From Thermodesulfobacteriota bacterium (GTDB taxonomy: Bacteria > Desulfobacterota > WTBG01 > JAGOGO01), in contig CP113000.1 of assembly GCA_026625185.1 (NCBI GenBank), forward strand, positions 1,095,622 through 1,127,621: 32,000 nt of DNA, given 5' to 3'. Positions within the stretch are counted from its first letter, which is position 1, and each line of letters begins with the position of its first letter. Below are positions 2,192 through 16,563 of this stretch, one piece after another. Both the position numbers and the translations under genes were made by a program. The notes beneath the pieces were generated by a model that saw nothing but the letters and a program-made list of their open reading frames with translations, did no database searches and was not told the DNA's origin.

Positions 2192-2347
2192 TCCAGTTTA
2201 AAATACTGGACTCCGGGGCAAGCCCGAAATGACCTAAAAATAAAAACTTTCTTCTCTACAGAGATAGGTTGATAAGCTTTCTTGACAACTATACGGTATC
2301 CATGATAATTTTTCAACAGAAGTCTATAGGTAAATTTTTTTATTGAC

Positions 2348-3190
2348 ATGAGAAGATCAATAACCACAAACATCGCCCTTGTCTCGTGTGACCTCAACGG
2401 CACCCTGGTCCATCAGCATACGATGATGGACATGATCAGGGTTTATTTTCCCGATCAGCCGGAGCGATTTAAAAAAGCAAAAGAAGCTTTTAACAAGCAA
2501 ACCTCCGGACTTTTAAGCATGAAGGAAGCCTTTGCGATTGCCGGACCTCTTACCAGGGGTTTAAGCCTTCGGAATGCCATCCGCTATGCAGTAAAAGAGA
2601 TGAATTTTCTGGAAGGCTTTGAACTTTTTATTTCTACTCTTTATGAAAAGGGGATCTATTTTATTATAAACTCTACGGGATACAGCATAACTACTGAAGT
2701 TATCAAGGCGATTTATGGGCCGGAAAAAATTTATGCGGTGATCTGCAATCGCCTTATTTTTGGATGGGGGGGGAGAAATCATAAAGTGATTGACGAGGCT
2801 GAATTGTCTCAGCGGGTGAAAAAGTATTTTCGCGGTAGTGAAAAAGAAAAGAGCTACGATGAAATCCTGGCCACCGGACAGGTAAAGCTCGGAATCCAGG
2901 ATGAAAGAGAGAAGGTTAACCTGCTCTTTACGATTGCGGATACACTAAAAATACCAAGACAAGCAATCGCCCATATCGGAGATACCATGGGAGATAGTGT
3001 TGGAATAAGCGACGTTGCCCGAAATGGGGGCCTGGGTATTGCTTTTAACTATAACCAAGCCCTTAAGAACTATCTGGAGAAAATTCTTAAAAATGAAAAT
3101 TTTTTGGGAACGATTCTCCTGATTGAGCCTAAAAAAGAGACTTCCAGTCTAAAGCTTCTTTCAGATATTATACTATCCTATTCATCATAA
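2348..3190 (+). CDS. HAD-superfamily hydrolase-like protein (phosphoserine-phosphatase-like, subfamily IB-like)
   Basis: Motif I-like ALVSCDLNGTLV has D-x-N-x-T rather than D-x-D-x-T. Motif IV-like is HIGDTMGDSVG. The stop lies 12 nt before the next gene. Confidence 0.65.
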   Translation: MRRSITTNIALVSCDLNGTLVHQHTMMDMIRVYFPDQPERFKKAKEAFNKQTSGLLSMKEAFAIAGPLTRGLSLRNAIRYAVKEMNFLEGFELFISTLYEKGIYFIINSTGYSITTEVIKAIYGPEKIYAVICNRLIFGWGGRNHKVIDEAELSQRVKKYFRGSEKEKSYDEILATGQVKLGIQDEREKVNLLFTIADTLKIPRQAIAHIGDTMGDSVGISDVARNGGLGIAFNYNQALKNYLEKILKNENFLGTILLIEPKKETSSLKLLSDIILSYSS

Positions 3191-3202
3191 AGCCCCTAAC
3201 GC

Positions 3203-4195
3203 ATGCAAAAAGAAACTTTGGATATTTTGAGAAAAAATTTGCACGACCTGACGGTAAAAGGAGAAATAATTTTCCGGGATGGGGAAAACAATTTTTTTTC
3301 TCAGGCCCTGAAAGAATTTGCCCAGGCAGTTTCCGAAGCAACCGGGGGAAAAATTTCTGTTAATATGAAAAAAAGTGGTTCTTCTCTGCCCGGATTGCCT
3401 GCTCTCACCATATCGGGTGAGCATTCTCGCAACATTCATTATTTGGCTCTTCCAGAGGGTTATGAACTTCATCCTTTCATACAAGCCATTAAATTTCTAA
3501 CCCCAGGCTATGCGCCCCTTTCTGCCCAGGTAAAAAAAACGATCTCCATGGTCACAACTCCCGTTGAAGTCCGCGTTTTTGTCTCTCCCTATTGCACCAA
3601 TTGCCCCCAGGTGGCCGAAACAGTGATTAAATTAGCTTCCGCCAACCCCCTGGTTTCCGCCTTTATTATTGATGTTCATAATTTCAAGGGATTAGCTGAT
3701 GAATATCGCCTCACGTCAGTTCCGGCTACGGTTATAAATAATGAACTTGTCCTTTTTGGGTTAATCACTGAGGAAAAATTAGCAGAGCTTCTGGCACAAA
3801 AGGATAAGCCCCTCTATGGTCGTGAGCTGATGCGCTCTCTGATTGAAAGCGGGCTAACCTTAAAAGCAGCCGACCTCATCTGCCACGAAAAAGGGAGAGG
3901 AGTAATTTTAGAACTCTTCCGAGAAGGAGACTTTTTTACCCGGTTGGGTATATTAGTTGCGTTCGAAGAGGCATTAGAAAAAGACCAAAAGGCAATCCGA
4001 GGAATGGTCCCCCAGCTTATTGAGCTGCTCTACCATCAAGACCACCGCATCCGAGGTGATATTGCTGATCTTCTGGGAAAGATCGGGGATGCAACCACCA
4101 TCCCTCATCTGCAAAAATTGACCAGCGATCCCCACCCCGAGGTGGCTGAAGCCGCGTCTGAGGCCCTGGAAAGGTTTCATAACGCTTCAGGCTAG
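3203..4195 (+). CDS. thioredoxin-fold protein (AhpF N-terminal domain / protein-disulfide-oxidoreductase-like) fused to HEAT repeats
   Basis: The second Trx-like unit, VFVSPYCTNCPQVAE...SVPATVINNELV, has a CxxC site. The first unit resembles the cysteine-less half of PDO/AhpF-NTD (IHYLALPEGYELHPFIQAI). The C-terminus HQDHRIRGDIADLLGKIGDATTIPHLQKLTSDPHPEVAEAASEALE resembles PBS-lyase-type HEAT repeats. Confidence 0.7.
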   Translation: MQKETLDILRKNLHDLTVKGEIIFRDGENNFFSQALKEFAQAVSEATGGKISVNMKKSGSSLPGLPALTISGEHSRNIHYLALPEGYELHPFIQAIKFLTPGYAPLSAQVKKTISMVTTPVEVRVFVSPYCTNCPQVAETVIKLASANPLVSAFIIDVHNFKGLADEYRLTSVPATVINNELVLFGLITEEKLAELLAQKDKPLYGRELMRSLIESGLTLKAADLICHEKGRGVILELFREGDFFTRLGILVAFEEALEKDQKAIRGMVPQLIELLYHQDHRIRGDIADLLGKIGDATTIPHLQKLTSDPHPEVAEAASEALERFHNASG

Positions 4196-4198
4196 CCT

Positions 4199-5482
4199 AT
4201 GAATCTTTTACTTTTTGAAATTAACCCGTTTACTCCCCCGTCAGTTCCCATATCATTGGCGTATATCGGAGCCTATGCTCAAGCCAATGGTTTCGGAGTA
4301 AAGATCATAACTCTTGGTGAAGGCACACCCTTTTCCCTTCGCCATTTACAAACACTCATTGAAGAATATAAACCCGGTCTTGTTGGTTTCTCAACCTACC
4401 AAAGGAATATCTTCTATGTATTAGGATTGGCAAATGCCATAAAAAAGATCGCCCCCGAAATAAAGACGGTAATTGGCGGCCCCCAGGCAACGTTCCTTCC
4501 GTCTGTCAGCCTTGCCCAAAGCTCGATTGATTTTATCTGCCGAGAAGAAGGCGAGCTCGCTTTTTTTACTATTGCCAAAACCCTGCTAGAAGACAGCGCG
4601 ATCCCTCTCGTTCCGGGATGTTCCTGTAAATTAGAAGACGGACGGTTCTCTGATGGCCCTCCTCTTATTGGTTACACAAACCTAGATCATCTCCCCTCTC
4701 CTTATTTGAGCGATGGTCTTATTGACTTTGAAAAAATAGACGAAGCTATCCTCCTTACTTCCCGCGGTTGTCCCTACCAATGTATTTTTTGTTATACACC
4801 CAATGCCTTCAAACAGAAAGTGCTTTTCCATTCTATCGAAAGAGTAATAGAGGAGATTGAGCGAATCGTAAAAAGGGGGATCAAAAAAATTTGGTTTGCG
4901 GACCCGAGTTTTTCTTTCCGTATGGAGCGGGTTGATGAGCTGATGGAGAATATCCTCAAAAAAAATTTTAAGCTGGATATCTGGCTTGAAACCCGCGCCG
5001 ACCTGATTAATACGGAATTGCTCAAAAAAATGAAACGCGCAGGAATAAAGCAGGTTGCTTATGGACTTGAGTCAGCATCCGAGAAAGTGCTTTCAAAGCT
5101 CAAAAAGAAAATTTCCCTTGACCAGATTCGAAAGGCTATAGATCTTACGCACCAGCAAGGAATAGGCGTAGAGCTTTTTACCCAATTCGGTCTTCCCCAT
5201 GAGACCTTTGAGGATGCTATGACCACCTTTAGGTTTCTAAAAGACAATCAGGTCCCGATCCGGGGAAACTCCAATTCTCAGCAGACCCAAATCTATTTTG
5301 GCACTGAACTTTATACTCATCATAAAAAATACGGGGTTTTCCCTTTCGAAAATCAAACGCCTCCTTATCTTTCCATCGGCGACCAGTATGAAACATCCTG
5401 TCTATCATCGGGTGAGATCAAAAAAATTAAAGTCATCTGGGAAAAAGAATCTTTAGATGGCGGAAAAAGAATGGTATCGTGA
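4199..5482 (+). CDS. cobalamin (B12)-binding-domain radical SAM protein
   Basis: CxxxCxxC radical SAM cluster motif in TSRGCPYQCIFCY. The N-terminal Rossmann-like region (GFGVKIITLG...LVGFSTY...VIGGPQATF) is typical of class B radical SAM enzymes. The start lies 3 nt after the upstream stop. Confidence 0.85.
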   Translation: MNLLLFEINPFTPPSVPISLAYIGAYAQANGFGVKIITLGEGTPFSLRHLQTLIEEYKPGLVGFSTYQRNIFYVLGLANAIKKIAPEIKTVIGGPQATFLPSVSLAQSSIDFICREEGELAFFTIAKTLLEDSAIPLVPGCSCKLEDGRFSDGPPLIGYTNLDHLPSPYLSDGLIDFEKIDEAILLTSRGCPYQCIFCYTPNAFKQKVLFHSIERVIEEIERIVKRGIKKIWFADPSFSFRMERVDELMENILKKNFKLDIWLETRADLINTELLKKMKRAGIKQVAYGLESASEKVLSKLKKKISLDQIRKAIDLTHQQGIGVELFTQFGLPHETFEDAMTTFRFLKDNQVPIRGNSNSQQTQIYFGTELYTHHKKYGVFPFENQTPPYLSIGDQYETSCLSSGEIKKIKVIWEKESLDGGKRMVS

Positions 5483-7218
5483 CCAAGGTTCTCTCGATTA
5501 AAAACGCGATAATCCTTCTCAATGGGAAAAACCGCTCCCGCGGCTATAAGGACTTTCTTGCCCCGATTTTCCCTTTGCTTGACCTTTACTCCGATATTTA
5601 TGTGGTCTCTGAAAATTTTCTGGAAGACTTTTCCCGGTTTATGGAGACAATGAAAGAGGTTGCTCAGTTCCTTACTGCACATAAATTCTATCGGATCAAC
5701 CTCCGCCCCCTTCATCCATTCTCGTCCTCCGCCCATTTCATAGAAATTTACACCACCCTCCATTATACGCTGCTGCCTTTTATGGAGGAGGCATATCGCC
5801 ACCAAAACATATCCCGTTTAATGATCTTTCCCGTGATACAATTAAAAGAAGCGGGCGATGAAAAAAACCTTTTGTCGTTTTTAGAGTTTCTGAGAGAGCG
5901 AAACCTGGTTCCCAGCCTGTATCTTCAAAACTTTTCTTCCTTATCTATCCAGAATCTTATCAATACCCAAAAAGAACGCGTCTATATAGAACGTGGCGAA
6001 GGGCCACCAGAGGAAAAGATTGTGCGAACACTTTGTTGTCACCTTCAGTGCGATAAACTTCTTGCCTGGTTTAATACGCCCGTGAGGAGCGGACTGCCGG
6101 AGGACCGGACGCTTATTTTTTCAGAAAAAGATCAAATTTTTTTTGTGGGATTAAAAAACTTTCTTACCGGGAATTCTTTAGACGCGCATTCTGGGGCATT
6201 AATTTCGGAAATTGAAAAGACGTTTTTAAAGAACTACGATGATCCCCTTTTCCACAACCTTGCGGTTCTCCCCCAATTAAAAGAAACCTTCCTGACAAAC
6301 AACCGAAAACGAGAGGCCGCAAATATTTTCTTCAGCCTCGGGTTAGAATTGGTAAAAAGAGAAGACTACGCAAAGGGACTTGATCTGTTTGAGGAAGCCC
6401 TCGCCATGCCCGGCGGTATCGATGATCTTCGTGCGGTCTTACTTTCTAAGGCCCTCTGCCATCTCCGGCTTCATGATTTTAAATCAGCCCAGGCGGGTCT
6501 GGATGCGGTTGAGAAAGAAGACCCTACCGATGCCATGGTGCACTATTATCAGGGACAGCTAGAGTTTGGACTTAAGGATTATATTGAGGCAATTGACCGG
6601 TTTAAGAAAGCAATCGAAATTGATGCCCGCCAAATTCCCGTGGGAGATGCTTATTATTATATGGCGCTCTCCCACATCGATATTTTAGAATATGATGATG
6701 CCTTGACGTGCTTAGCTGAGGCGGAAAAAAATTTTTCGCAGGATAAGCTCAGTCCCATTTTTTATTATCAAGGGATCTGCTTTCTGGGAAAAAATAACCT
6801 GGATGCCGCGTACCAATTTTTTCAGAAAGCATTATGCTCTAATCCCGCTCAGGAGGACTTAAGCAGCATTTACCTTCACCTCGGAATCTGCCACAAGGAA
6901 AAAGGAGAGTACCTTAGCGCTCTTGATGATCTTAAAAAAGCGCGGGAAGCTGAAGAGGATCGATTGGACGTTCATAACCTTATGGGATTCTGCTATTTCA
7001 AACTTAAATACTATGATCAGGCAATCGCGTGCTTTTTAAGGGCTGTCGAGATAAACCCTCATTCCGCGATTGACTGGGCTAATCTGGGGGTAAACGTGCG
7101 GGCAAAAGGCGAAGATGAAAAAGCCATTATCTTATTTAAAAAAGCATTGGGCTTAGATCCTACTATTGGTTTTGCCCAAAAACACCTGCAGGAGTTGCTG
7201 GAGAAAAAAAACCGATGA
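5479..7218 (+). CDS. TPR-repeat protein with an N-terminal domain of about 270 aa and unknown function
   Basis: The GTG start overlaps the radical SAM stop (GTGA). The C-terminal half has repeated 34-aa A/Y/G-patterned units (e.g. AYYYMALSHIDILEYDDALTCLAEAEK, HNLMGFCYFKLKYYDQAIACFLRAVEINP). I recognise no motif in residues 1-270. Confidence 0.8.
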   Translation: MTKVLSIKNAIILLNGKNRSRGYKDFLAPIFPLLDLYSDIYVVSENFLEDFSRFMETMKEVAQFLTAHKFYRINLRPLHPFSSSAHFIEIYTTLHYTLLPFMEEAYRHQNISRLMIFPVIQLKEAGDEKNLLSFLEFLRERNLVPSLYLQNFSSLSIQNLINTQKERVYIERGEGPPEEKIVRTLCCHLQCDKLLAWFNTPVRSGLPEDRTLIFSEKDQIFFVGLKNFLTGNSLDAHSGALISEIEKTFLKNYDDPLFHNLAVLPQLKETFLTNNRKREAANIFFSLGLELVKREDYAKGLDLFEEALAMPGGIDDLRAVLLSKALCHLRLHDFKSAQAGLDAVEKEDPTDAMVHYYQGQLEFGLKDYIEAIDRFKKAIEIDARQIPVGDAYYYMALSHIDILEYDDALTCLAEAEKNFSQDKLSPIFYYQGICFLGKNNLDAAYQFFQKALCSNPAQEDLSSIYLHLGICHKEKGEYLSALDDLKKAREAEEDRLDVHNLMGFCYFKLKYYDQAIACFLRAVEINPHSAIDWANLGVNVRAKGEDEKAIILFKKALGLDPTIGFAQKHLQELLEKKNR

Positions 7219-8438
7219 ATCCCCAAAAAGCAAAGGCGCTTTACTCCCTCATCTTGCCTCAGGGATTAGTCTTAGGGGCAATTATTTTTTATCTCCATTT
7301 TTTTGCCACCCCAAAAACCGTGCTCCTGGTCGCTCCTATTTATTCTTCGGTAGTATTAGTGGCTGGGGTGTTGCTGGGTTGGCGTTTTAACAGAAGCCGG
7401 CTCGTGTTTTCTCTTCTGGTCTTGGCCCTGTCAGAAAGAGGGCTTTTTTGCCTTTTTCATATCCAGGGCATTAATGATGTTGTGAAACACACTGCCTTTG
7501 GTAGTATGGCGCTGCTCTTACCCGTAAACTTTGTTCTTCTCTCCATAATGCGCGAGCGTGGTATATTCACTTTCACCGGCCTTTGGCGAGCGAGTGTAAT
7601 CCTCCTCCAAGTTTCTTTAGTTGTTTTAATCGCCTACTACCATCCCGAAAAGGTAATCGTTTTTTTCAATTATAATCTGCTGAGTCCACGCGTTCTTCAA
7701 TGTACACCAATTCCCCAGAGTGCTTTGATCGTGATCGGATTAGGATTGATCTTTTTTTTGATTCGTTTTAGGTATAAGCAAAAGCCCATGGAAATCGGCT
7801 TCTTTTGGGCGCTCTTTACCGCGGTTATTGCTCTAAGTCAAAACAAAGAGCGCTTCGTTACCGTTTACTTTGCCACCGCTGGCCTTATCCTCGTTATTTC
7901 CCTTATAGAGACTGCTCACGCCATGGCCTACCAGGATGAATTGACAAGTCTTCCGGGAAGACGGGCATTAAAAGAATATCTGCTTAAACTGGTTAGTGAG
8001 TATACCATTGCCATGCTTGATATCGATCATTTCAAAAAATTTAACGACACTTACGGACACAACGTGGGAGATCAGGTGTTACGGATGGTAGCGTCAAAAC
8101 TCGCCGCGGTTTCCGGCGGGGGAAAGGCTTTTCGGTATGGCGGGGAAGAATTTACTCTGGTATTCTCAAAAAAATCTCTTGGAGAAACAACTCCTCACCT
8201 AGAAGATCTCCGGGAAACGGTTGCATCATCACGCTTTACCATTCGAGGGAGCAAACGCCCCCAAAAAAAGCCAAAAACCATTATTCCCGTGAGCGGAGAA
8301 AGAAAAAAGCTCTCGGTTACCGTAAGTATTGGCGTAGCTGTGCAGAAAAATAATCAAAAGTCAGCTCAGGTGATCAAAGCTGCGGACAAAGCGCTTTATC
8401 GTGCTAAAAAATCAGGACGCAACCAAGTGAGTACATAA
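7215..8438 (+). CDS. membrane-anchored diguanylate cyclase (GGDEF domain)
   Basis: The ATG overlaps the upstream stop (ATGA). About 230 aa of hydrophobic multi-pass segments are followed by DELTSLPGRRAL...DIDHFKKFNDTYGHNVGD...RYGGEEF...ALYRAKKSGRNQV. The active site is GGEEF. SGGG occupies the position of the RxxD I-site. Confidence 0.9.
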   Translation: MNPQKAKALYSLILPQGLVLGAIIFYLHFFATPKTVLLVAPIYSSVVLVAGVLLGWRFNRSRLVFSLLVLALSERGLFCLFHIQGINDVVKHTAFGSMALLLPVNFVLLSIMRERGIFTFTGLWRASVILLQVSLVVLIAYYHPEKVIVFFNYNLLSPRVLQCTPIPQSALIVIGLGLIFFLIRFRYKQKPMEIGFFWALFTAVIALSQNKERFVTVYFATAGLILVISLIETAHAMAYQDELTSLPGRRALKEYLLKLVSEYTIAMLDIDHFKKFNDTYGHNVGDQVLRMVASKLAAVSGGGKAFRYGGEEFTLVFSKKSLGETTPHLEDLRETVASSRFTIRGSKRPQKKPKTIIPVSGERKKLSVTVSIGVAVQKNNQKSAQVIKAADKALYRAKKSGRNQVST

Positions 8439-8687: not shown

Positions 8688-9278
8688 TCAGTTGTCGCTT
8701 GTGGCAGTGCCCTTAAAATCCGGTTGCGGAAGGCTTAATCGGTTTAAATCACTTTTTTCCTGAAACAATTCTTTATCGTGTTTCAGCACAAACTGCTGGA
8801 GTTTCTTTTGTTCCTCGGTTATGGATAAAGAGTAAGCATATTTTTCTTTGCACACTGTGCCCTTCAAGCTACCTTCCTTAATTGCGTTTTCAATCACCTG
8901 AGCATTCAGAATAGAAATCACCAATGATTCACCTTCCGTTGAGTATTTAATCAAGAGATATCCTTTCGGCTCATCGGCCGGCCGAACCCATTTCAAATTC
9001 AAATACTTGTTATTCCCCAATGAGGATGTGTTTCCATTAAACTCGGAAACATCTATGGTGCCATCCTTGTCATGTTCGATCATAATTACCTGAAGCAGCT
9101 TCGACTCTTTATTCAGCCCTATGTGGACAAAACCCGAGTCACTTTCTTCGTTCCAAAACCAGGTTCCCAATACTGCCGCATCTATTTTTTCTTTATTCGG
9201 GTCAGTAAGAGGATTATCTGAATAAGGTACACACCCTCCTAAAAAAATTACCATAAACAGTATCGTTACGTAACGCAT
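8688..9278 (-). CDS. lipoprotein of unknown function
   Basis: Signal peptide with lipobox MRYVTILFMVIFLGGC. I recognise no catalytic motif. Confidence 0.6.
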   Translation of the reverse strand: MRYVTILFMVIFLGGCVPYSDNPLTDPNKEKIDAAVLGTWFWNEESDSGFVHIGLNKESKLLQVIMIEHDKDGTIDVSEFNGNTSSLGNNKYLNLKWVRPADEPKGYLLIKYSTEGESLVISILNAQVIENAIKEGSLKGTVCKEKYAYSLSITEEQKKLQQFVLKHDKELFQEKSDLNRLSLPQPDFKGTATSDN

Positions 9279-9555: not shown

Positions 9556-10365
9556 ATGAACCAGCCAAAACTCATAATGTTGTTATTCATTATTTTCTTG
9601 CTTGGGTGCTCCCTCCAATTTAGATCACCCATCGTTGTTAAACAAACCCCCAAGGAAGAAGAGAAGGTACCTCGTCCAAAAAAAATAGTTCCTCCCCCAC
9701 CCCTTACCGCTTCTGAGGCGGCTGAGAAACCCACGGAATCCCCCACCAAAAAAGAACCTGCTCCAACCGAAGAGCCAATGATTCATGAAGAAGTTTCTGG
9801 AGAAACTCCGGAAGTTGTCATAAAATCAGAGACCGTGGAGATAACGGCGCCCAAAGACAAAACTGCAATTTCTTCGGCAAAAAACATCGTCATTCTTGCT
9901 TCCCAGTATCTAAAGAACACAGAGTATAAAGTTTTAGAAAAAATCACCGTGAAAGATGTTTCTCGAGCTGGATTTAATAAACAGGAAGCCAGAGAAGCCC
10001 TCCAGTTTGAGGCGTTCCGCCGTTTTGGCTCTCAAGCTAAAGGCATAACCAATATTATTTACGGAGAGAAAACTGGTTTTATTCCCGGCTCAATAAGAGT
10101 TTCCGAAGTGAGCGGCGAAGTAATTACCTGGGAAGGGAAAACACCTCCCCAAAAGAAAGTCATTGAAAAAGAGACAAAACCCGAGCCTACAATAGAACCC
10201 TCGCCTCCTGTTCCTAACACCAAAACTGACACAAAGGCGTCTGCTCACGATACTGCTCCTTATGTTAAAACAAAAACAGAATCGCCTGCTCCTAACCCTC
10301 AAGCAAAACCAGAACCAACTCCTCCTTCTGCGCCTTCTATTAGCGAGCAGCAATTAGAACAATAA
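9556..10365 (+). CDS. lipoprotein with Pro/Glu/Lys/Thr-rich low-complexity linkers flanking a small globular core
   Basis: Lipobox LLFIIFLLGC. N- and C-terminal PEPT-rich tracts (KPEPTIEPSPPVPNTKTD..., PKKIVPPPPLTASEAAEKPTESPTKKEPAPTEEP). The central region of about 90 aa is non-repetitive. Confidence 0.65.
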   Translation: MNQPKLIMLLFIIFLLGCSLQFRSPIVVKQTPKEEEKVPRPKKIVPPPPLTASEAAEKPTESPTKKEPAPTEEPMIHEEVSGETPEVVIKSETVEITAPKDKTAISSAKNIVILASQYLKNTEYKVLEKITVKDVSRAGFNKQEAREALQFEAFRRFGSQAKGITNIIYGEKTGFIPGSIRVSEVSGEVITWEGKTPPQKKVIEKETKPEPTIEPSPPVPNTKTDTKASAHDTAPYVKTKTESPAPNPQAKPEPTPPSAPSISEQQLEQ

Positions 10366-10473: not shown

Positions 10474-11754
10474 GTGAGTAATAAATCAGAACTTCTTTTG
10501 GAAAAAGCAAAAAAATATATCCCCGGAGGAGTTAATAGCCCGGTCAGGGCTTTTAAGGCCGTGGGAGGAATCCCCCCTTTTATTACTTCAGCTTTAGGGT
10601 CAAAAATTTATGATGTTGATGGAAAAGAATACATTGACTATGTGGGCTCCTGGGGTCCTATGATTGTTGGTCATCGACATCCTCAGGTAATAGAAGCTTT
10701 GCAAAAAGCGTTAACAAAAGGATTAAGCTATGGCGCGCCTACTGAGGCAGAGATCGAGCTTGCCCGGATGATTGTTGAGGCGGTTCCTTCGATCGAAATG
10801 GTTCGCATGGTAAACTCCGGTACTGAGGCGACAATGAGCGCTGTTCGACTTGCTCGCGGCTACACCGGGCGGGATAAAATAATTAAGTTTAGCGGATGTT
10901 ATCATGGCCATGGAGATTTTCTTTTAGTAAAAGCCGGATCAGGGGCAACCACGCTTGGCATCCCTGATAGCAAGGGCGTGCCTGATGATTTTGCCCGCAA
11001 CACCATCACCCTTCCTTTTAATAACCTCGATGCAGTTAAAAGGGCAGTAAAGTCTGAAGCGCTTAAAATCGCCGCGATTATTTTAGAGCCAGTCCCCGGC
11101 AATATGGGAGTAATTCTTCCTCAGGAGGAATTTTTATGCGGACTTCAAGAGCTTTGCCATGAAACAGGCATCGTGCTTATTTTTGATGAGGTGATGAGTG
11201 GATTTCGAGTCGCATGGGGAGGAGCCCAGTCGTTATACGGAGTCATTCCTGATATGACCTGTCTGGGAAAGGTTATCGGGGGAGGTATGCCGGTAGGAGC
11301 TTTTGGAGGAAAAAAGGAAATCATGGAAAACCTCGCTCCCTTAGGTCCGGTCTATCAGGCAGGAACCTTATCCGGAAATCCCTTGGCAGTTACCGCAGGA
11401 CTGGAAACCCTAAAAATTCTTGCCCAACCCGGAACCTATGCGACCCTGGAAAAAAGCTCAGAGTACCTTGTGAAAGAGGCTAAAAAACTCGCTCAAAAAA
11501 CCAGCGTGAAAACGCATATCAACCGGGTTGGTTCTTTGTTTACCCTGTTTTTTGCCTCTCAGGAAGTGATTGATTATGATACCGCGCTAAAAAGCGATAC
11601 TGTTGCATTCAGTCGCTATTTCCATTTAATGTTAAAAGGGGAAATCTATCTTGCCCCTTCTCAGTTTGAAGCAAACTTTATCTCTTTAGCCCACTCTCAA
11701 GAGGACCTCGATAAAACCCTTGAGGTCATGGCCAAGGCCTTCAAGGAACTTTAA
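10474..11754 (+). CDS. hemL: glutamate-1-semialdehyde 2,1-aminomutase
   Basis: GTG start. N-terminal [18 protein letters not shown]-lysine region [19 protein letters not shown] and a 426-aa length all match HemL. Confidence 0.95.
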
Positions 11755-11757
11755 CTT

Positions 11758-12177
11758 TTATTTTTTTCGAAAAGCAATACAGCGCACCTCTCCCTCTTGG
11801 TCTAACGTGGATATTGTATAACGGCCATTTTTATCCGGTGGTTTGTCCCAAAAAATCGACCGGGTATAGTCCTGGGCTTGGTGCAGCAATTCAAGGACAT
11901 GGGAGCACCCTCGCTCTCCTCCGAGCGTCTTTAACAACCTCCGCCGGAACTGAGGATGCTGCAGGGAAAGACCCATGAGCTTTTCCACGTTTTTTATGCA
12001 GTCTAAGCAACGATCTTCCGGATGACGCGGCATTTCGAGCTCTATCCTGACAATGGAATACTGAGAATCTTCCACCCAGATCCGGAGAATAATGTGGTGG
12101 TATTCATCCTCCATCTCAGCGGTTATCCTTTTTAATGTATCCTCATCGGTTTCAGCTAAAAATTTTTGTGTTCTCAT
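11758..12177 (-). CDS. hypothetical protein, possibly DUF2889-like
   Basis: 139-aa ORF with Cys/His positions (CLDC, GCSHVLELL) reminiscent of DUF2889. The family assignment is from memory only. It converges on hemL with only 3 nt between the stop codons. Confidence 0.55.
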   Translation of the reverse strand: MRTQKFLAETDEDTLKRITAEMEDEYHHIILRIWVEDSQYSIVRIELEMPRHPEDRCLDCIKNVEKLMGLSLQHPQFRRRLLKTLGGERGCSHVLELLHQAQDYTRSIFWDKPPDKNGRYTISTLDQEGEVRCIAFRKK

Positions 12178-12254
12178 TTACCATCCGTAATAAAAAGTTT
12201 AATCTCAAAGTCCCCGCCTCCTCGCATAGGCGATTTGCTTGACCAGCAATAGAA

Positions 12255-12284
12255 ATTATGACCAAAAATTCACATGTTTTGCAA
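12255..12284 (-). promoter_or_regulatory. candidate sigma-70 promoter for the 11758..12177 gene
   Basis: On the minus strand: TTGCAA (12284-12279), an 18-nt spacer, then CATAAT (12260-12255), about 75 nt upstream of the ATG. Confidence 0.4.
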
Positions 12285-12889
12285 GAAAATAAAAAAGAGG
12301 GAGGGTCTTCTCCAAAATGAGTGGGTAAAAAAAGTATTTCTTTGGAGAAAACCACTTGCAATTAAAGGCAAAAAAGCTTGGGAACGGTGATATTTTTATG
12401 CCATTTTTTAGGCATGAAAAAACACTCTTTATCAGATGTAATGCGTTTTAGTGAATGTTGTTGGAAATGACACCTTTTTAAGTTTACTAAGCTCTGTTTA
12501 CCGTGGATTGATTCCCCTCTAGGGGGAATTAAGAAAACCCCTGAAATCTACCCACTCGACAAGGAGAAGAACCAAAAAAAATTATTACTGGGAAAATTTT
12601 AAAAAAGCGAACTTTCCTCTAGCTTTTAAGTAGGATTTTCAGACGGCAATCAAACAAAAAAATGGCTATTCAGGGATTGACTTAAGAATACGAGATTCAT
12701 TTGTTGTGCTATTTGCCATGAATGGTTTAAACGCTCGATAAATTTTCAATGGTGGATTTCGCAAGGACAATAGAATTTGACGCTGCATTGACTTTTGAAA
12801 CAGATTGGGCTTTAGTCCGAGGAGCGGGCTGCGAATCTTCAATTGCGGACAGTGAATGATAGGCTGGGGAAAAGCGTTTGTCGAGAATG

Positions 12890-14509
12890 CTAAATGAAGT
12901 TAGCTTGATCGAGAAGCAGCTCACTTTCCATCAAACATACTTTCTCCTGACCAAGTTTTTTCGCGATCTCAGCAATCAAAGAGGCTATGGTGAAGCGTTT
13001 GGGAATTATGGCGGGACTTAAGCCCGACAAGACCGCTTCTTTAGCAGTAAGGGGGCCAACGGTTGCAACTTTCAACGTGCTTAGGATCTTCTCCCAAAGC
13101 CTTCCTTGCGTTAAGGCGCGAAAATTTCTTACCGAGGCAGGAGAGGTAAAAATTATAAGATCAATTCCGGGAGAAACCAGAGCCTTCCTAAGCTCTTGTG
13201 CGTTGATTTTTTCATCGGTGATTTTGTAAGCATCAACCGTGACCACTTTATTCCCCATCTCCTGAAAAAATTCAGCCAGCTCCCCTCTCGATTCTTTACA
13301 GCCTGGGATCAGTATCTTCTTTCCTTTTAACCCCTTCGCTTTGATCATCGCAAAAAAATCTTTCATCCCCGCATGAGGTGAGGGAAGGTCAACCTTAAGC
13401 ATCCGTTTGACAAACTCATTAATAGTATTTTCTCCGATCGCGCCCAAGACAATATTAGAAAGTTCCCGGATGTCCTTATCTCTTTCGGCAAACCGATGAA
13501 AAAAACACTTTACACTGTTTATGCTGGGGAAAATTATGCAGTGATAATCATGAAGATGATCGAGGGCTGAATCCAAATCTTCCCAGGAATCAGGATAAGT
13601 AACCCGGATAGTAGGGAGCATGATAGGAACCGCTCCCAACTCTTCTAAGTTTTTTGCCAGCTCAAAAGCTTGTTGCTTCGATCCGGTCACTAGGATGCGA
13701 AGTCCAAAAAGGGGTTTGTTCTCAAACCATTTTATCTTCTCCCGAAGCGTAACCACCTTGCCGATAACTGCCAAAACCGGAGTTATTATCTTCCTCTTTT
13801 TCGCTTCCTTCGCTATCCGTTTAAGGGGGGCAGTCAAAACCTCTTGATCTCCTAAGGATCCTCGGCTAATCAAGGCAACAGGGGTGTCCGGCGACCACCT
13901 CCCCTGGATAAGCTTTTCGGAAATATAGGGTAGATTAGCCAACCCCATATAAATAACAAGAGTTCCTGCATCTGAAGGAATGTTCTCCCACTTGATTCGG
14001 GAATCTGGGTGCCCCGTAAAAAAAGTGACCTGGGATGCAAAGTCCCGATGGGTGAGCGGGATTCCACTATACGCCGAAACCCCAACCGCCGAAGTAACCC
14101 CAGGAACTACATCAAAAGGGATGCCTTGTTCGGCTAATTTTTGGGCCTCTTCTCCTCCCCGGCCAAAAATAAAAGGATCACCGCCTTTAAGTCGAACAAC
14201 GGTCTTTCCTTGAAGAGCGTGTTCGATTAAAGCAGTGGTGATCGTTTCTTGGGGAACATGTACCCCCCAGCCCTTCTTCCCCATATTGACTATCTCAGCA
14301 TCCTCTCGAGCCCAACCAAAAATTATCGGATTAACCAAAGAGTCATGAACAATAACATCCGCCCGAGCGATGCATTCCTTGGCCCGAAGTGTAACCAAAC
14401 CAATATCCCCCGGCCCAGCACCCACCAAAAAAACCTTTCCCTTTTTCTTTTGGGCACGAGGGGGGAGATTGATTTGAGAGCTTTTATCTTTGCGACGGAG
14501 CTTTGTCAT
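12890..14509 (-). CDS. cobA: fused uroporphyrinogen-III C-methyltransferase / uroporphyrinogen-III synthase (CobA/HemD)
   Basis: The N-terminal SUMT domain has VFLVGAGPGDIGLVTLRA and GGDPFIFGRGGEE. The C-terminal half of about 250 aa has HemD-like organisation (LRILVTGSKQQAFELAKNLEELGAVPIMLPTI...). Such fusions are described in Desulfovibrio. Confidence 0.9.
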   Translation of the reverse strand: MTKLRRKDKSSQINLPPRAQKKKGKVFLVGAGPGDIGLVTLRAKECIARADVIVHDSLVNPIIFGWAREDAEIVNMGKKGWGVHVPQETITTALIEHALQGKTVVRLKGGDPFIFGRGGEEAQKLAEQGIPFDVVPGVTSAVGVSAYSGIPLTHRDFASQVTFFTGHPDSRIKWENIPSDAGTLVIYMGLANLPYISEKLIQGRWSPDTPVALISRGSLGDQEVLTAPLKRIAKEAKKRKIITPVLAVIGKVVTLREKIKWFENKPLFGLRILVTGSKQQAFELAKNLEELGAVPIMLPTIRVTYPDSWEDLDSALDHLHDYHCIIFPSINSVKCFFHRFAERDKDIRELSNIVLGAIGENTINEFVKRMLKVDLPSPHAGMKDFFAMIKAKGLKGKKILIPGCKESRGELAEFFQEMGNKVVTVDAYKITDEKINAQELRKALVSPGIDLIIFTSPASVRNFRALTQGRLWEKILSTLKVATVGPLTAKEAVLSGLSPAIIPKRFTIASLIAEIAKKLGQEKVCLMESELLLDQANFI

Positions 14510-14530
14510 GGTTAAGAAGGAACTTAAAAT

Positions 14531-14716
14531 TTAAGTTTCTTCAACGGTAATAGCACCCTGGGGACATTCTTCTACACAACTCTCACAGCCAACGCAATCA
14601 TCCATATTTTCAGGATAGGACTTGCCGTCTTTTACGACAAAAACATCACTGGGGCAAATATCCGCACATGCGCCATCCCCATCGCATTTATCAAGATCAA
14701 CAGTAACCTGAAACAT
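14531..14716 (-). CDS. small ferredoxin with seven Cys (3Fe/4Fe-4S type)
   Basis: 61 aa. Contains [12 protein letters not shown] and [12 protein letters not shown] cluster motifs. An SD aaaggag lies upstream. Confidence 0.9.
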
Positions 14717-14757
14717 GATTATACTCCTTTCTAAAATTCTCTATATCAAGCCGAGCA

Positions 14758-15084
14758 CTAAACACAGCCGGTAGGCTTGGGAAGTCCTGCAACTTTACAA
14801 GCACCTTTAGCGGGGCCTGAGGGAAACATTTCATAGATTTCTTTCAACTTTAAATCGCAGTCCTTGCAGAGCTTTCTTACCATCGGCGCAATTCCAAACT
14901 TCTGATAATACTCTCGAATATAGTTTACCAGTTTCCAGTGTTTTTCCCCCATATCCTGGACGCCTTCAGTCTTTGCTAAATCTATAGCAACATTTTGATC
15001 CCAAAGATCAGGTTCCTGGATAAAACCATCCTCATCAACTTCCACTTCTTTCCCTCCTAACATAACCTTTGCCATTTTTTTCAC
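14758..15084 (-). CDS. dsrC: dissimilatory sulfite reductase subunit DsrC (TusE/DsrC/DsvC family)
   Basis: GIAPMVRKL...FPSGPAKGACKVAGLPKPTGCV. The C-terminal arm carries both conserved cysteines (penultimate Cys and the Cys 11 residues before it), which is diagnostic of true DsrC rather than TusE. A strong SD aaggaggtga lies upstream. Confidence 0.95.
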   Translation of the reverse strand: MKKMAKVMLGGKEVEVDEDGFIQEPDLWDQNVAIDLAKTEGVQDMGEKHWKLVNYIREYYQKFGIAPMVRKLCKDCDLKLKEIYEMFPSGPAKGACKVAGLPKPTGCV

Positions 15085-15174
15085 CTCCTTAAATAAAAAG
15101 GGTTAAAAATTGTTTTGGGCTGTTAAAGCCTTACATAAAACACAATAAAAATTACCGTAATAAACGGTTTGTGT

Positions 15175-16563
15175 CTAATTGTTTTTATAGGATTCAGCTT
15201 TTCTTATCAGGGCGCTCGCCCACCTTCTTTCTCCCAGGGCATGAATATGCGTATACGTTGAGAGAACATTTTTATAGCAAAGACCATCTCGTTTTCCGTT
15301 AAAACCAAAGCCCCGTTTAACTTTAAAAGCCAAACATATTTGGTCTTCCTTCCACTTCTCTACCTTTGAATAGTGAAACTCATGGCCCCGGATAACACTA
15401 CCGGATTCAAAAAATGGGTTAGGGGCATCAGATTTAAGAATTGTATACCCATGTCCCCATGGTTTTTTATCAAGATTAAAAACAACCGGAAAAATGTCGG
15501 CCATGGGAAAAAATTTGTTTTGCACGTGCACGCTTTTCCCGAGATACATTGCTCCGCCACATTCAGCGTAGACGGGCAAACCATCTTCAACCGCCTGTTT
15601 TAATGAACGGCGAAAGTATCTATTCGCCGCTAATCCTTCAATATTCGTTTCAGGAAATCCACCCCCAATATAAAGACCATCCACCGAAGGAAGTGCTTTG
15701 TCTTGGAGCGCATTTATCTCAACAATTTCCCCCCCCCTTCTTTCCAGCTCCTCCAGGTTCTCCGGATAGTAGAATTGGAAAGCTGAATCCTTAATAATTC
15801 CTATCCGAACTAAAGAGGTAGGCTTTTTTTTGCAAGCCCCTTCGTTGTAACTAGAAATTTTTAGATGAGGTGCTTTTGATGCTACCCCCCATAAACAATC
15901 AAGGTCAAGATATTTTTCTCCAATTTCGGCGCAAAATTTAAGGGCCGCTTCTCTTTTATGATGTTCTGGAGGTGGAACTAAGCCCAGATGCCTTTCCGGG
16001 AAAGGGAGATCTTTTAATTTTGGTATCTCCCCTAATACCGGAATCCGGCACTCCTGTTCAATCGAAGAACGAATAATGCTTGCGTGCCGATTCCCTGCAA
16101 TTTGGTTAAGGATTAGCCCCTTAATTTTCAACTGAGGATCCATTTTTTGGCACCCCAGCACCAAGGCTGCTATTGTTCGAGTCGCCTTTGTACAATCAAT
16201 TACTAAAATCAAAGGTGTCTTTAGTAGCTTAGCAAGACTGGCAGTACTATGACTTCCTTTTTCATCCACTCCATCAAAAAGCCCCCGGTTTCCCTCGATT
16301 ACCGCACCAGTTTCTCCGCGAGTGCGCTGGATAAAAGATTGTACTACTGTTTTTTCGGCCATTAGAAACGTATCAAGGTTATAACAGGGTTGCCCTGTGG
16401 CCTCCTTTAACCAAGCTGAATCAATAAAGTCAGGCCCTTTTTTAAAGGCAGTAAGGGAAAAACCCTTTTTTCGCCAACCACAAATAACTGCTATGCTCGC
16501 AATTGTTTTGCCTGAGCCTCCTCGAAAAGCGCCAATAACAATCCTTGGGATATTTAAGTGCAT
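15175..16563 (-). CDS. dsrN: cobyrinic acid a,c-diamide synthase family amidotransferase, likely DsrN (siroheme amidase)
   Basis: The CbiA-type N-terminal P-loop (GAFRGGSGKT) and a C-terminal glutamine amidotransferase domain (YAECGGAMYLG, HEFHYS) are seen directly. The DsrN call is inferred from its position immediately upstream of dsrC and next to siroheme genes. Confidence 0.75.
   Translation of the reverse strand: MHLNIPRIVIGAFRGGSGKTIASIAVICGWRKKGFSLTAFKKGPDFIDSAWLKEATGQPCYNLDTFLMAEKTVVQSFIQRTRGETGAVIEGNRGLFDGVDEKGSHSTASLAKLLKTPLILVIDCTKATRTIAALVLGCQKMDPQLKIKGLILNQIAGNRHASIIRSSIEQECRIPVLGEIPKLKDLPFPERHLGLVPPPEHHKREAALKFCAEIGEKYLDLDCLWGVASKAPHLKISSYNEGACKKKPTSLVRIGIIKDSAFQFYYPENLEELERRGGEIVEINALQDKALPSVDGLYIGGGFPETNIEGLAANRYFRRSLKQAVEDGLPVYAECGGAMYLGKSVHVQNKFFPMADIFPVVFNLDKKPWGHGYTILKSDAPNPFFESGSVIRGHEFHYSKVEKWKEDQICLAFKVKRGFGFNGKRDGLCYKNVLSTYTHIHALGERRWASALIRKAESYKNN

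Follow-up and report, generated by a model that had tools for sequence, protein, structure and literature searches.

We analyzed a 32,000-nucleotide (nt) stretch of a Thermodesulfobacteriota bacterium genome (assembly GCA_026625185.1, contig CP113000.1, positions 1,095,622 to 1,127,621; referred to here as the window, whose own numbering is used throughout). Our focus was a block of five plus-strand open reading frames (ORFs) that contains the gene for a B12-type radical S-adenosylmethionine (SAM) enzyme (ORF 3, 4199-5482, 427 amino acids) and, directly downstream, the gene for a protein with tetratricopeptide repeats (TPRs) that we call the partner (ORF 4, 5479-7218, 579 amino acids, GTG start). 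The conserved unit is a two-gene module made up of the radical SAM gene and then the partner gene, often translationally coupled, and the block in the window is a lineage-specific elaboration of it. The remaining genes of the block encode a HAD-IB-like protein (ORF 1, 2348-3190, 280 amino acids), a protein that joins thioredoxin folds to HEAT repeats (Trx-HEAT; ORF 2, 3203-4195, 330 amino acids), and a membrane GGDEF protein (ORF 5, 7215-8438, 407 amino acids). The best explanation of the module as a whole, to which we assign a probability of roughly 0.55, is a two-subunit B12-type radical SAM enzyme whose second subunit is a scaffold resembling radical SAM and Twitch-domain proteins. The module is uncharacterized and lies within a known superfamily, and the architecture of the partner is not described.

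A search of the GTDB species genomes with the radical SAM protein returned 238 matching stretches, and 80 loci were retained. All 80 were from metagenome-assembled genomes of the Thermodesulfobacteriota type, with Desulfobacterales, Syntrophales, Thermodesulfobacterium, Thermodesulfatator, Desulfofervidaceae, and the Eth-SRB partners of alkane oxidizers among the lineages. Grouping the loci at 65% radical SAM identity gave four main clades with 58, 12, 12, and 11 members. (Genome stretches of relatives carry L numbers, and the percent identity of a relative is that of its radical SAM protein to the radical SAM protein of the window.) Using the window proteins as tblastn queries, we found the partner gene 3' of the radical SAM gene in ∼70 of the 80 loci. 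De novo ORF clustering identified the partner family in 65 loci, with the next neighbor family in no more than 15 of 81 loci, and jackhmmer detected the partner N-terminal domain in 67 of 83 radical SAM loci. The two genes overlapped or were at most 21 nt apart in 31 of the 54 adjacent pairs. The genes flanking the pair were varied housekeeping genes that differed between clades, including aconitase, ADP-forming acetyl-CoA synthetase, RNase III, and thiolases by sequence reading and hemL, ATP sulfurylase, and a tRNA synthetase by Pfam matches.

A first-pass annotation of the window had treated the five genes as one tightly coupled operon that might form a single pathway, and it had named the loss of gene order in relatives as evidence against this idea. 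Such loss is, in part, what we observed. All five genes were found in the same order solely at 86 to 90% identity (L001, L084, L086, and L087). At 74% identity (L081 and L089) four genes were left and the GGDEF gene was missing, and at 65% identity or below the HAD gene was missing, the Trx-HEAT gene was missing or placed elsewhere, and the pair remained. Thus, the association between the radical SAM gene and the gene for the 579-residue protein is widely kept, but a conserved five-gene pathway is not supported.

Several loci carried variants of the pair. In clade B (L005, L006, L009, and L011), one to five genes lay between the radical SAM and partner genes, so the pair is not always contiguous. 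The inserted genes encoded a Thi4-like protein, a membrane protein, and a class I methyltransferase, with a toxin-antitoxin-like pair in L006; we considered these genes as a functional lead and set them aside, as they look unrelated to the module on sequence reading. In many clade A Desulfobacterales loci (L016, L023, L036, L043, L048, L050, L057, and others), the pair was followed on the same strand by a gene read as RNase III and then by a second radical SAM protein of ∼345 to 375 amino acids that had no B12 domain. A paralogous module with a TPR-less partner of ∼296 amino acids was present in L077, L078, and L080 (e.g., L080 5652-10192), where two further proteins were encoded 5' of it on the same strand: one of the 4HB/CHASE3-HAMP type, whose GGDDF motif is degenerate, and a coiled-coil protein of ∼185 amino acids that resembles a lipoprotein. 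Modules with long and short partners occurred together in some genomes, for example, in CP070769 (L055 and L068) and in JAJSZT01 (L024 and L080).

The radical SAM protein had an N-terminal B12-binding domain (PF02310, 58.8 bits against a cutoff of 32.1, residues 16 to 122) followed by a radical SAM core (PF04055, 94.4 bits against a cutoff of 29.5, residues 187 to 347), and this order, together with a CX3CX2C motif, agrees with its initial designation as a class B (B12) radical SAM enzyme. The cluster motif, C191-P-Y-Q-C195-I-F-C198, was invariant in 28 aligned homologs. Only three Cys residues were invariant in the family alignment, which indicates that the radical SAM enzyme itself has no auxiliary cluster. 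The C-terminal tail (W...S-L-D-G-G-K-R-x-V-S) was kept in all loci, whatever the form of the partner. Among the top 120 database matches, identity over the full length ranged from 49 to 100%, and nearly all proteins were 424 to 455 amino acids long, with a few partial or longer; Thermodesulfobacterium geofontis was one of the named sources of the matches. B12-dependent radical SAM enzymes comprise more than 100 sequence groups, mostly without known function (PMC12931638), and the window enzyme fell outside the characterized families: every NCBIfam score was far below its cutoff (score/cutoff: ApyD, 124/750; HpnJ, 115/578; PhpK, 112/600; KedN5, 102/700; HpnR, 101/650; ladderane-lipid radical SAM, 97/360; BchE, 87/481; MgmA-type TIGR04014, 82.8/360; BzaD, 64/450). 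Relatives in the PDB (CysS, TokK, OxsB, TsrM, MgmA [9ccb], and AprD4) matched over the core only. A search for defense systems with PADLOC, which we considered as another reading of the block, gave only a generic radical SAM match (PDC-M51A, 101 bits), with no match for any of the remaining four proteins.

The characterized enzymes ApyD, HpnJ, PhpK, KedN5, HpnR, and BchE share the domain order and cluster motif of the window enzyme and scored 87 to 124 bits over residues ∼15 to 385, which is 4- to 7-fold under the curated cutoffs; none of them is described with a Twitch-like partner. [quoted passage not shown] Like MgmA, the window enzyme is a compact two-domain protein (B12-binding domain and radical SAM core, ∼430 to 450 amino acids), and the PDB profile match extended over the core with an E value of 3.8e-19. 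The two differ in that MgmA is archaeal and that the window family ends in 80 C-terminal residues of its own. We know of no dedicated partner subunit of MgmA.

The partner protein is made up of an N-terminal domain (residues 1 to 286, 5479..6336) and a TPR superhelix of about seven repeats (6337..7218). The TPRs noted in the first-pass annotation were recovered in residues ∼290 to 579 (TPR_2, 109 bits; TPR_1, 101 bits), and the first ∼270 residues, which had been described there as matching nothing recognizable, indeed matched no curated family when residues 1 to 286 were compared with Pfam. An N-domain profile weighted toward the window clade matched nothing in the PDB or Pfam. A model of the full-length partner had a mean predicted local distance difference test (pLDDT) score of 90.8, and Foldseek matched it to TPR proteins only (E = 2e-14 to consensus TPR proteins and the OGT TPRs). 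Modeled alone with AlphaFold2, residues 1 to 286 gave a pLDDT of 87.5 and a predicted template modeling (TM) score of 0.88, with six beta/alpha units followed by a beta-hairpin (211 to 223) and helices. The profile and structure searches that had been recommended for this region thus produced a confident partial alpha/beta barrel but only weak matches. Foldseek found no PDB match to the N-domain model at or below 1e-3; the matches were TIM-barrel enzymes with TM-scores of 0.2 to 0.36, and the best query-normalized TM-score, 0.42 (E = 9e-3), was to the SPASM radical SAM enzyme SuiB.

A word-indexed search with the N-domain alone recovered 3 proteins, and a full-length query with an exhaustive search found more; the domain, at 25 to 33% identity, occurred in 38 representative clusters among 1.84 billion proteins. 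Across 68 members of the partner family, L65, H79, E104, R113, and P118 were invariant, and four alignment columns were 79 to 93% Cys. The motif C-x9-15-G-x4-C...C-x2-C was present in 51 of the 68 members. The window copy has E208, G224, P256, and H259 in these four columns. The same loss was seen in L001 and L081/L082 and extends through the window clade down to 74% radical SAM identity, while the invariant polar residues are kept despite it.

The SPASM/Twitch motif begins with one Cys before and one after a hairpin, C-x9-15-G-x4-C, and in the Twitch domain of BtrN four Cys residues ligate an auxiliary [4Fe-4S] cluster (PMC6231123). When a profile of the Cys-bearing members was searched against 177,635 PDB sequences, BtrN was the sole match (E = 0.12), and its Cys residues aligned with the four Cys columns of the partner family. 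When Cys-bearing members were scanned singly, the SPASM family TIGR04085 was the commonest NCBIfam match (4 of 12; best E = 0.03). BtrN (PDB 4m7s/4m7t) is a Twitch-domain radical SAM dehydrogenase, and the N-domain resembles it in size (∼250 to 280 amino acids) and in having a partial barrel and then a hairpin, a helix, and a CxxC. The partner differs from BtrN in lacking a CX3CX2C motif, in its fusion to TPRs, and in having its gene next to that of a separate, active radical SAM enzyme; in the window copy, moreover, all four Cys are absent. The CX3CX2C radical SAM motif was sought in the aligned partner members and found in none, so the partner cannot cleave SAM. Because four independent weak signals (the Cys motif, BtrN, TIGR04085, and SuiB) point the same way, we read the N-domain as a pseudo-enzyme of the radical SAM/Twitch type. 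The domain probably carries a Twitch-like element; that its barrel is itself derived from a radical SAM protein we rate at even odds.

In the explanation that we favor, the partner would be a noncatalytic, radical SAM-derived scaffold subunit in a complex with the catalytic radical SAM enzyme. In most lineages, its contribution would include an auxiliary Fe-S site, provided in trans. It would also offer a conserved polar pocket (H79, E104, Q109, and R113), and its TPR platform would recruit a macromolecular substrate on which the radical SAM enzyme would perform a B12-dependent radical SAM reaction, most simply the C-methylation of a protein. In the window lineage, the partner without the four Cys would be a scaffold only, as the loss of all four leaves it no other role. 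Three accessory genes would have been added there behind one conserved sigma-70-type promoter: the Trx-HEAT gene, for a redox or adaptor protein that would have been recruited independently in Thermodesulfobacteria-like genomes; the gene for the HAD-like D-x-N protein; and, latest, the gene for the membrane diguanylate cyclase. The radical SAM protein changes slowly (∼427 amino acids with an invariant C terminus), whereas the N-domain of the partner changes fast, as one would expect if the two are an enzyme and its scaffold. In heterodimers such as METTL3-METTL14 and Dph1-Dph2, the catalytic subunit binds a degenerate homolog that has lost its cofactor-binding residues and acts as a substrate scaffold. 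The comparison is an analogy only: neither pair has a sequence relationship to the module, and the homology between the partner and the radical SAM superfamily is itself weakly supported. Literature searches gave no description of the radical SAM/partner pair. Because the words auxiliary, SPASM, twitch, partner, and heterodimer do not occur in the text of a 2026 review on radical SAM enzymes that depend on B12, and because ThnL is stated to be cluster-free apart from its radical SAM cluster, a Twitch-like partner acting in trans would be new.

It is important to note the points that weigh against this explanation. Each Twitch signal is nonsignificant on its own (E = 0.12 in the PDB and E = 0.03 in NCBIfam, with no Foldseek match at or below 1e-3), and hhalign found nothing between the partner N-domain and the radical SAM family (probability, 0.1%). 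The four Cys may hold a structural zinc instead of an Fe-S cluster. Moreover, the window clade lost the Cys and kept the gene, which argues that a cluster is not essential to the chemistry; because this clade dispensed with the Cys4 site, a structural or electron-relaying role is more likely for that site than one essential for chemistry. A paralogous subgroup has partners of ∼300 amino acids without TPRs, so recruitment through TPRs would not be universal. The complex of the radical SAM enzyme with its partner, the cofactors, and the substrate are predictions. Cobalamin binding by the window enzyme is likewise predicted from its domain content, and some predicted "B12-binding" radical SAM proteins, such as AprD4 and ArsL, are not cobalamin binders (PMC12931638).

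The nonsignificance of the N-domain similarities to BtrN and SPASM, the hhalign result, and the generic TIM-barrel enzymes that head the Foldseek matches by E value would also suit a different origin, in which the N-domain is a new alpha/beta domain that has no kinship with radical SAM or Twitch proteins and whose Cys4 site holds a structural zinc, the likeness in Cys spacing being coincidental. We find this doubtful, since four independent methods converge on one superfamily, since the Cys of BtrN, the only PDB match, align to the four Cys columns of the family, and since the predicted order of Cys, hairpin with a Gly turn, Cys, helix, and CxxC is the canonical Twitch order (PMC6231123).

With regard to the substrate, TPR and HEAT repeats usually bind proteins. 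Because of this, and because no biosynthetic neighbors recur, protein modification is the most economical guess, and we tentatively suggest, at odds well short of even, that the module modifies a housekeeping protein posttranslationally, by analogy with the action of MgmA/Mmp10 on methyl-coenzyme M reductase. A protein substrate would in this case be deduced from the TPR/HEAT content and the absent biosynthetic neighbors, and this, too, counts against the two-subunit explanation as a whole. The enzyme could instead modify a small molecule, a lipid, or a tetrapyrrole-type cofactor through methylation or cyclization like that of HpnJ, HpnR, or BchE, with the partner as a chaperone or membrane-proximal adaptor. 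HpnJ (115 bits), HpnR (101 bits), the ladderane-lipid radical SAM (97 bits), and BchE (87 bits) are among the best NCBIfam likenesses; the block in the window clade has hemL, cobA/hemD, a DsrN-like amidase, and dsrC as neighbors; and in L083 the pair has a polyketide synthase-like gene 5' and a CMAS-type methyltransferase and an FAD oxidoreductase 3'. However, these likenesses are generic class B similarity far under the cutoffs, and equal or higher scores are reached by ApyD, a RiPP (ribosomally made, posttranslationally modified peptide) enzyme, and by PhpK. The neighbors vary by clade, with none in more than 15 of 81 loci, and the TPR and HEAT domains speak for proteins as ligands. On balance, we consider a small-molecule substrate unlikely.

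A system for RiPP maturation whose precursor peptide escaped annotation would be suggested by the top NCBIfam score, that of ApyD (124 bits), and by a further match to TIGR03975, yet both scores are far under their cutoffs (750 and 282, respectively). Conserved ORFs of 18 to 110 amino acids around the module were, in all loci, only alternative-frame artifacts of neighboring genes; the four gene junctions in the window leave no space for a precursor ORF; and no transporter or protease gene recurs near the module. The earlier remark that a RiPP role is not supported, made from the lack of a precursor-peptide ORF in the window, therefore holds for every locus, as no conserved small ORF was found beside the module in any of them, and the chance of such a system seems to us very small.

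Of the accessory proteins, the HAD-like one scored below the thresholds of its families (PF12710, 26.9 bits against 27; TIGR01488, 34.3 bits against 45). Its nucleophile motif reads D15-L-N17-G-T (within C-D-L-N-G-T), with the acid/base Asp replaced by Asn, just as originally described. Both C-D-L-N-G-T and motif IV, G211-D-x-x-G-D216, were invariant in three orthologs. As a candidate phosphatase, the protein lacked both the second Asp of D-x-D-x-T/V and a score above the cutoff. The gene is confined to the window clade (radical SAM at least 74% identical).

The Trx-HEAT protein matched Thioredoxin_3 (53.7 bits) and HEAT_2 (36 bits) and has a single CxxC, so that its description as a double thioredoxin fold fused to HEAT repeats was confirmed. 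Both Cys of the CxxC (C131-T-N-C134) were invariant in six orthologs. Like the AhpF N-terminal domain and the archaeal protein disulfide oxidoreductase (PDO), it has two tandem thioredoxin folds, with 61 to 81 bits to the AhpF N-terminal region and 102 bits to PDO TIGR02187 (cutoff, 185). It differs from both in scoring below the cutoffs, in having a CxxC in the second fold only, and in the added C-terminal HEAT repeats, and it has no AhpC or flavoprotein partner gene nearby. In the window clade, the gene lies 5' of the radical SAM gene, and in clade C (L019, L033, and L047), which is Thermodesulfobacteria-like, it lies 3' of the partner gene. A reverse search with Trx-HEAT into metagenomes placed ∼19 full-length orthologs beside the pair or its contig remnant and four (L090 to L093) away from it. 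Trx-HEAT is thus a recurrent accessory whose linkage to the module holds in both search directions.

Three of the orthologs away from the pair (L091, L092, and L093) form a third Trx-HEAT clade; they are full length and 33 to 35% identical, and no radical SAM or partner gene is near them. In L091 (1784-3571), the Trx-HEAT gene is directly 3' of a gene for a PilZ-domain protein, and in L092 and L093 (3994-6984) it lies 3' of a CHASE2 class III nucleotide cyclase gene with a 12-nt gap. There are hints here that the Trx-HEAT family itself is tied to cyclic-nucleotide signaling.

ORF 5 was called a multipass membrane diguanylate cyclase in the first pass, and this call held up: the protein has ∼seven hydrophobic segments and a GGEEF motif at residue 309 but lacks an RxxD I-site over its whole length, and its GGDEF domain scored 119 bits with PF00990 and 128 bits with TIGR00254. 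This gene with seven transmembrane segments (7TM) was found only in the window and in L001, L084, L086, and L087. A gene like that for the 269-residue lipoprotein of the window (orf269; described below) and then hemL come directly after the partner gene in L081 and L089, an order that identifies the GGDEF gene and the convergent orf196 as a two-gene insertion. The membrane GGDEF gene is, then, a recent lineage-specific addition.

GGDEF genes were present in 10 of 96 radical SAM loci. These fell into four independent contexts, each with a different sensor module: the 7TM protein of the window subclade; the 4HB/CHASE3-HAMP protein with GGDDF in L077, L078, and L080; a GAF-GAF protein encoded on the same strand directly 3' of Trx-HEAT in L109; and a Tll0287-like protein encoded on the opposite strand in L098. 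In all four contexts, the GGDEF gene was no more than two or three genes away from the module, and none was found among the 384 genes that lie farther off in these loci. With "proximal" defined as within two genes of the module, which covers 42% of the flanking genes counted, a rough P value for this clustering is 0.42^4, or ∼0.03. GGDEF genes made up ∼1.5% of the flanking genes, a density that we estimate to be near the genomic average for these bacteria. The evidence for a cyclic di-GMP link of the module is weak and only suggestive: four unrelated GGDEF contexts near the module favor it, while the count of 10 in 96 loci and the ordinary overall density do not.

The initial suggestion went further, in that the five genes would form one pathway in which the product of the B12-type radical SAM enzyme is coupled to cyclic di-GMP through the membrane GGDEF protein. 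An ATGA overlap does join the partner gene to the GGDEF gene, proteins with four different types of sensor and a GGDEF domain occur near the module in four lineages (rough P, ∼0.03), and Trx-HEAT homologs without a radical SAM gene nearby adjoin genes for a PilZ protein or for a class III cyclase with a CHASE2 domain. Set against this are the rarity of GGDEF genes among the loci, their absence at 74% identity, where the same neighbors come directly after the partner, the confinement of the HAD gene to one clade, and a GGDEF density near the estimated genomic average. We judge the five-gene pathway to be improbable. Also quite unlikely as a whole is an extended form of the two-subunit explanation, namely, an obligate B12-type radical SAM heterodimer with a dead radical SAM-derived subunit that would provide a Twitch cluster in trans and a TPR platform for modifying a housekeeping protein in sulfate-reducing and syntrophic Thermodesulfobacteriota, and that in several lineages would be wired to cyclic-nucleotide signaling (with the GGDEF, PilZ, and class III cyclase neighbors as its trace).

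The tight packing of the five ORFs was reproduced when the coordinates were derived again. ORFs 1 and 2 are separated by 12 nt (TAA at 3188-3190, ATG at 3203) and ORFs 2 and 3 by 3 nt (TAG at 4193-4195, ATG at 4199), ORFs 3 and 4 share a GTGA overlap (5479-5482), and ORFs 4 and 5 share an ATGA overlap (7215-7218), all as first reported. A sigma-70-like promoter (TTGACA-16-GATAAT, 2282..2309, plus strand), which matched 11 of 12 positions in a consensus scan, lies ∼39 nt 5' of the first ATG. The block from its -35 element to the start codon is near-invariant in L001, L084, L086, and L087, and the sequence further 5' is unrelated or diverged. In a sequence scan for separate promoters and terminators between the genes, internal sites were at the level of shuffled sequence (promoter-like, 14 versus 12.9 ± 3.5; terminator-like, 12 versus 9.3 ± 3.1). 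The conserved promoter and the background level of internal sites make a single transcript likely, and judging from these sequence features, the five genes, as a compact, co-oriented block, are probably cotranscribed. A sigma-54 promoter was sought upstream of the operon and none was there, although a sigma-54 activator gene adjoins. An Rfam scan of the window matched no family, and thus no cobalamin or cyclic di-GMP riboswitch.

The intergenic region between ppx and the operon (1978-2192) has ∼170 nt that are extra relative to the close relatives L001, L084, and L086. A perfect inverted repeat of 12 nt, with its arms at 2019-2030 and 2169-2180, flanks this extra sequence and continues imperfectly to ∼23 nt (ATTCCCGCGAAGAGACTGTGTCG / CGACACAGTCTCGAAGGCGGGAAT). 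The extra sequence resembles a small insertion of the miniature inverted-repeat transposable element (MITE) type just 5' of the conserved promoter. A second copy of the putative MITE-type insertion was not found within the window.

Downstream of the operon are two genes for predicted lipoproteins, one of 196 amino acids on the minus strand (orf196, 8688-9278) and one of 269 amino acids on the plus strand (9556-10365) whose low-complexity sequence is rich in Pro, Glu, and Lys. Neither had a significant family match, and one faint NCBIfam match (E = 0.006) was obtained. Relative to L081 and L089, the gene for the 196-residue lipoprotein came with the GGDEF gene in the same insertion. The window also holds a tetrapyrrole/Dsr cluster of sulfate reducers on the minus strand (12890-16563), made up of a fused cobA/hemD (12890-14509), a ferredoxin of 61 amino acids (14531-14716), DsrC with the C terminus ...CKVAGLPKPTGCV (14758-15084), and a CbiA/CobB-type amidotransferase that is likely DsrN (15175-16563). 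Between the operon and this cluster lie hemL (10474-11754) and a DUF2889 gene (11758-12177), and the hemL/DUF2889/Dsr arrangement is the same in L081. In L083, a relative at 65% identity, a protein of 1,069 amino acids with ketosynthase and acyltransferase domains is encoded before the pair, and a CMAS-type SAM methyltransferase and an FAD/NAD-binding oxidoreductase are encoded after it (11287-13449); this arrangement was seen once, and a lipid-modification context is possible there.

The radical SAM group described here has clear boundaries and shows strong conservation throughout a phylum that is dominant in anoxic sediments and to which syntrophic partners of alkane-oxidizing archaea belong, and the dedicated partner gene of the group has so far been annotated only as "TPR protein." If the partner is a dead relative of radical SAM/Twitch proteins, the module would be a concrete example of a split between enzyme and pseudo-enzyme in this superfamily, and the TPR and HEAT proteins would provide a handle on the substrate. 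The natural loss of the four Cys in the window lineage offers a ready comparison for the role of the auxiliary site.

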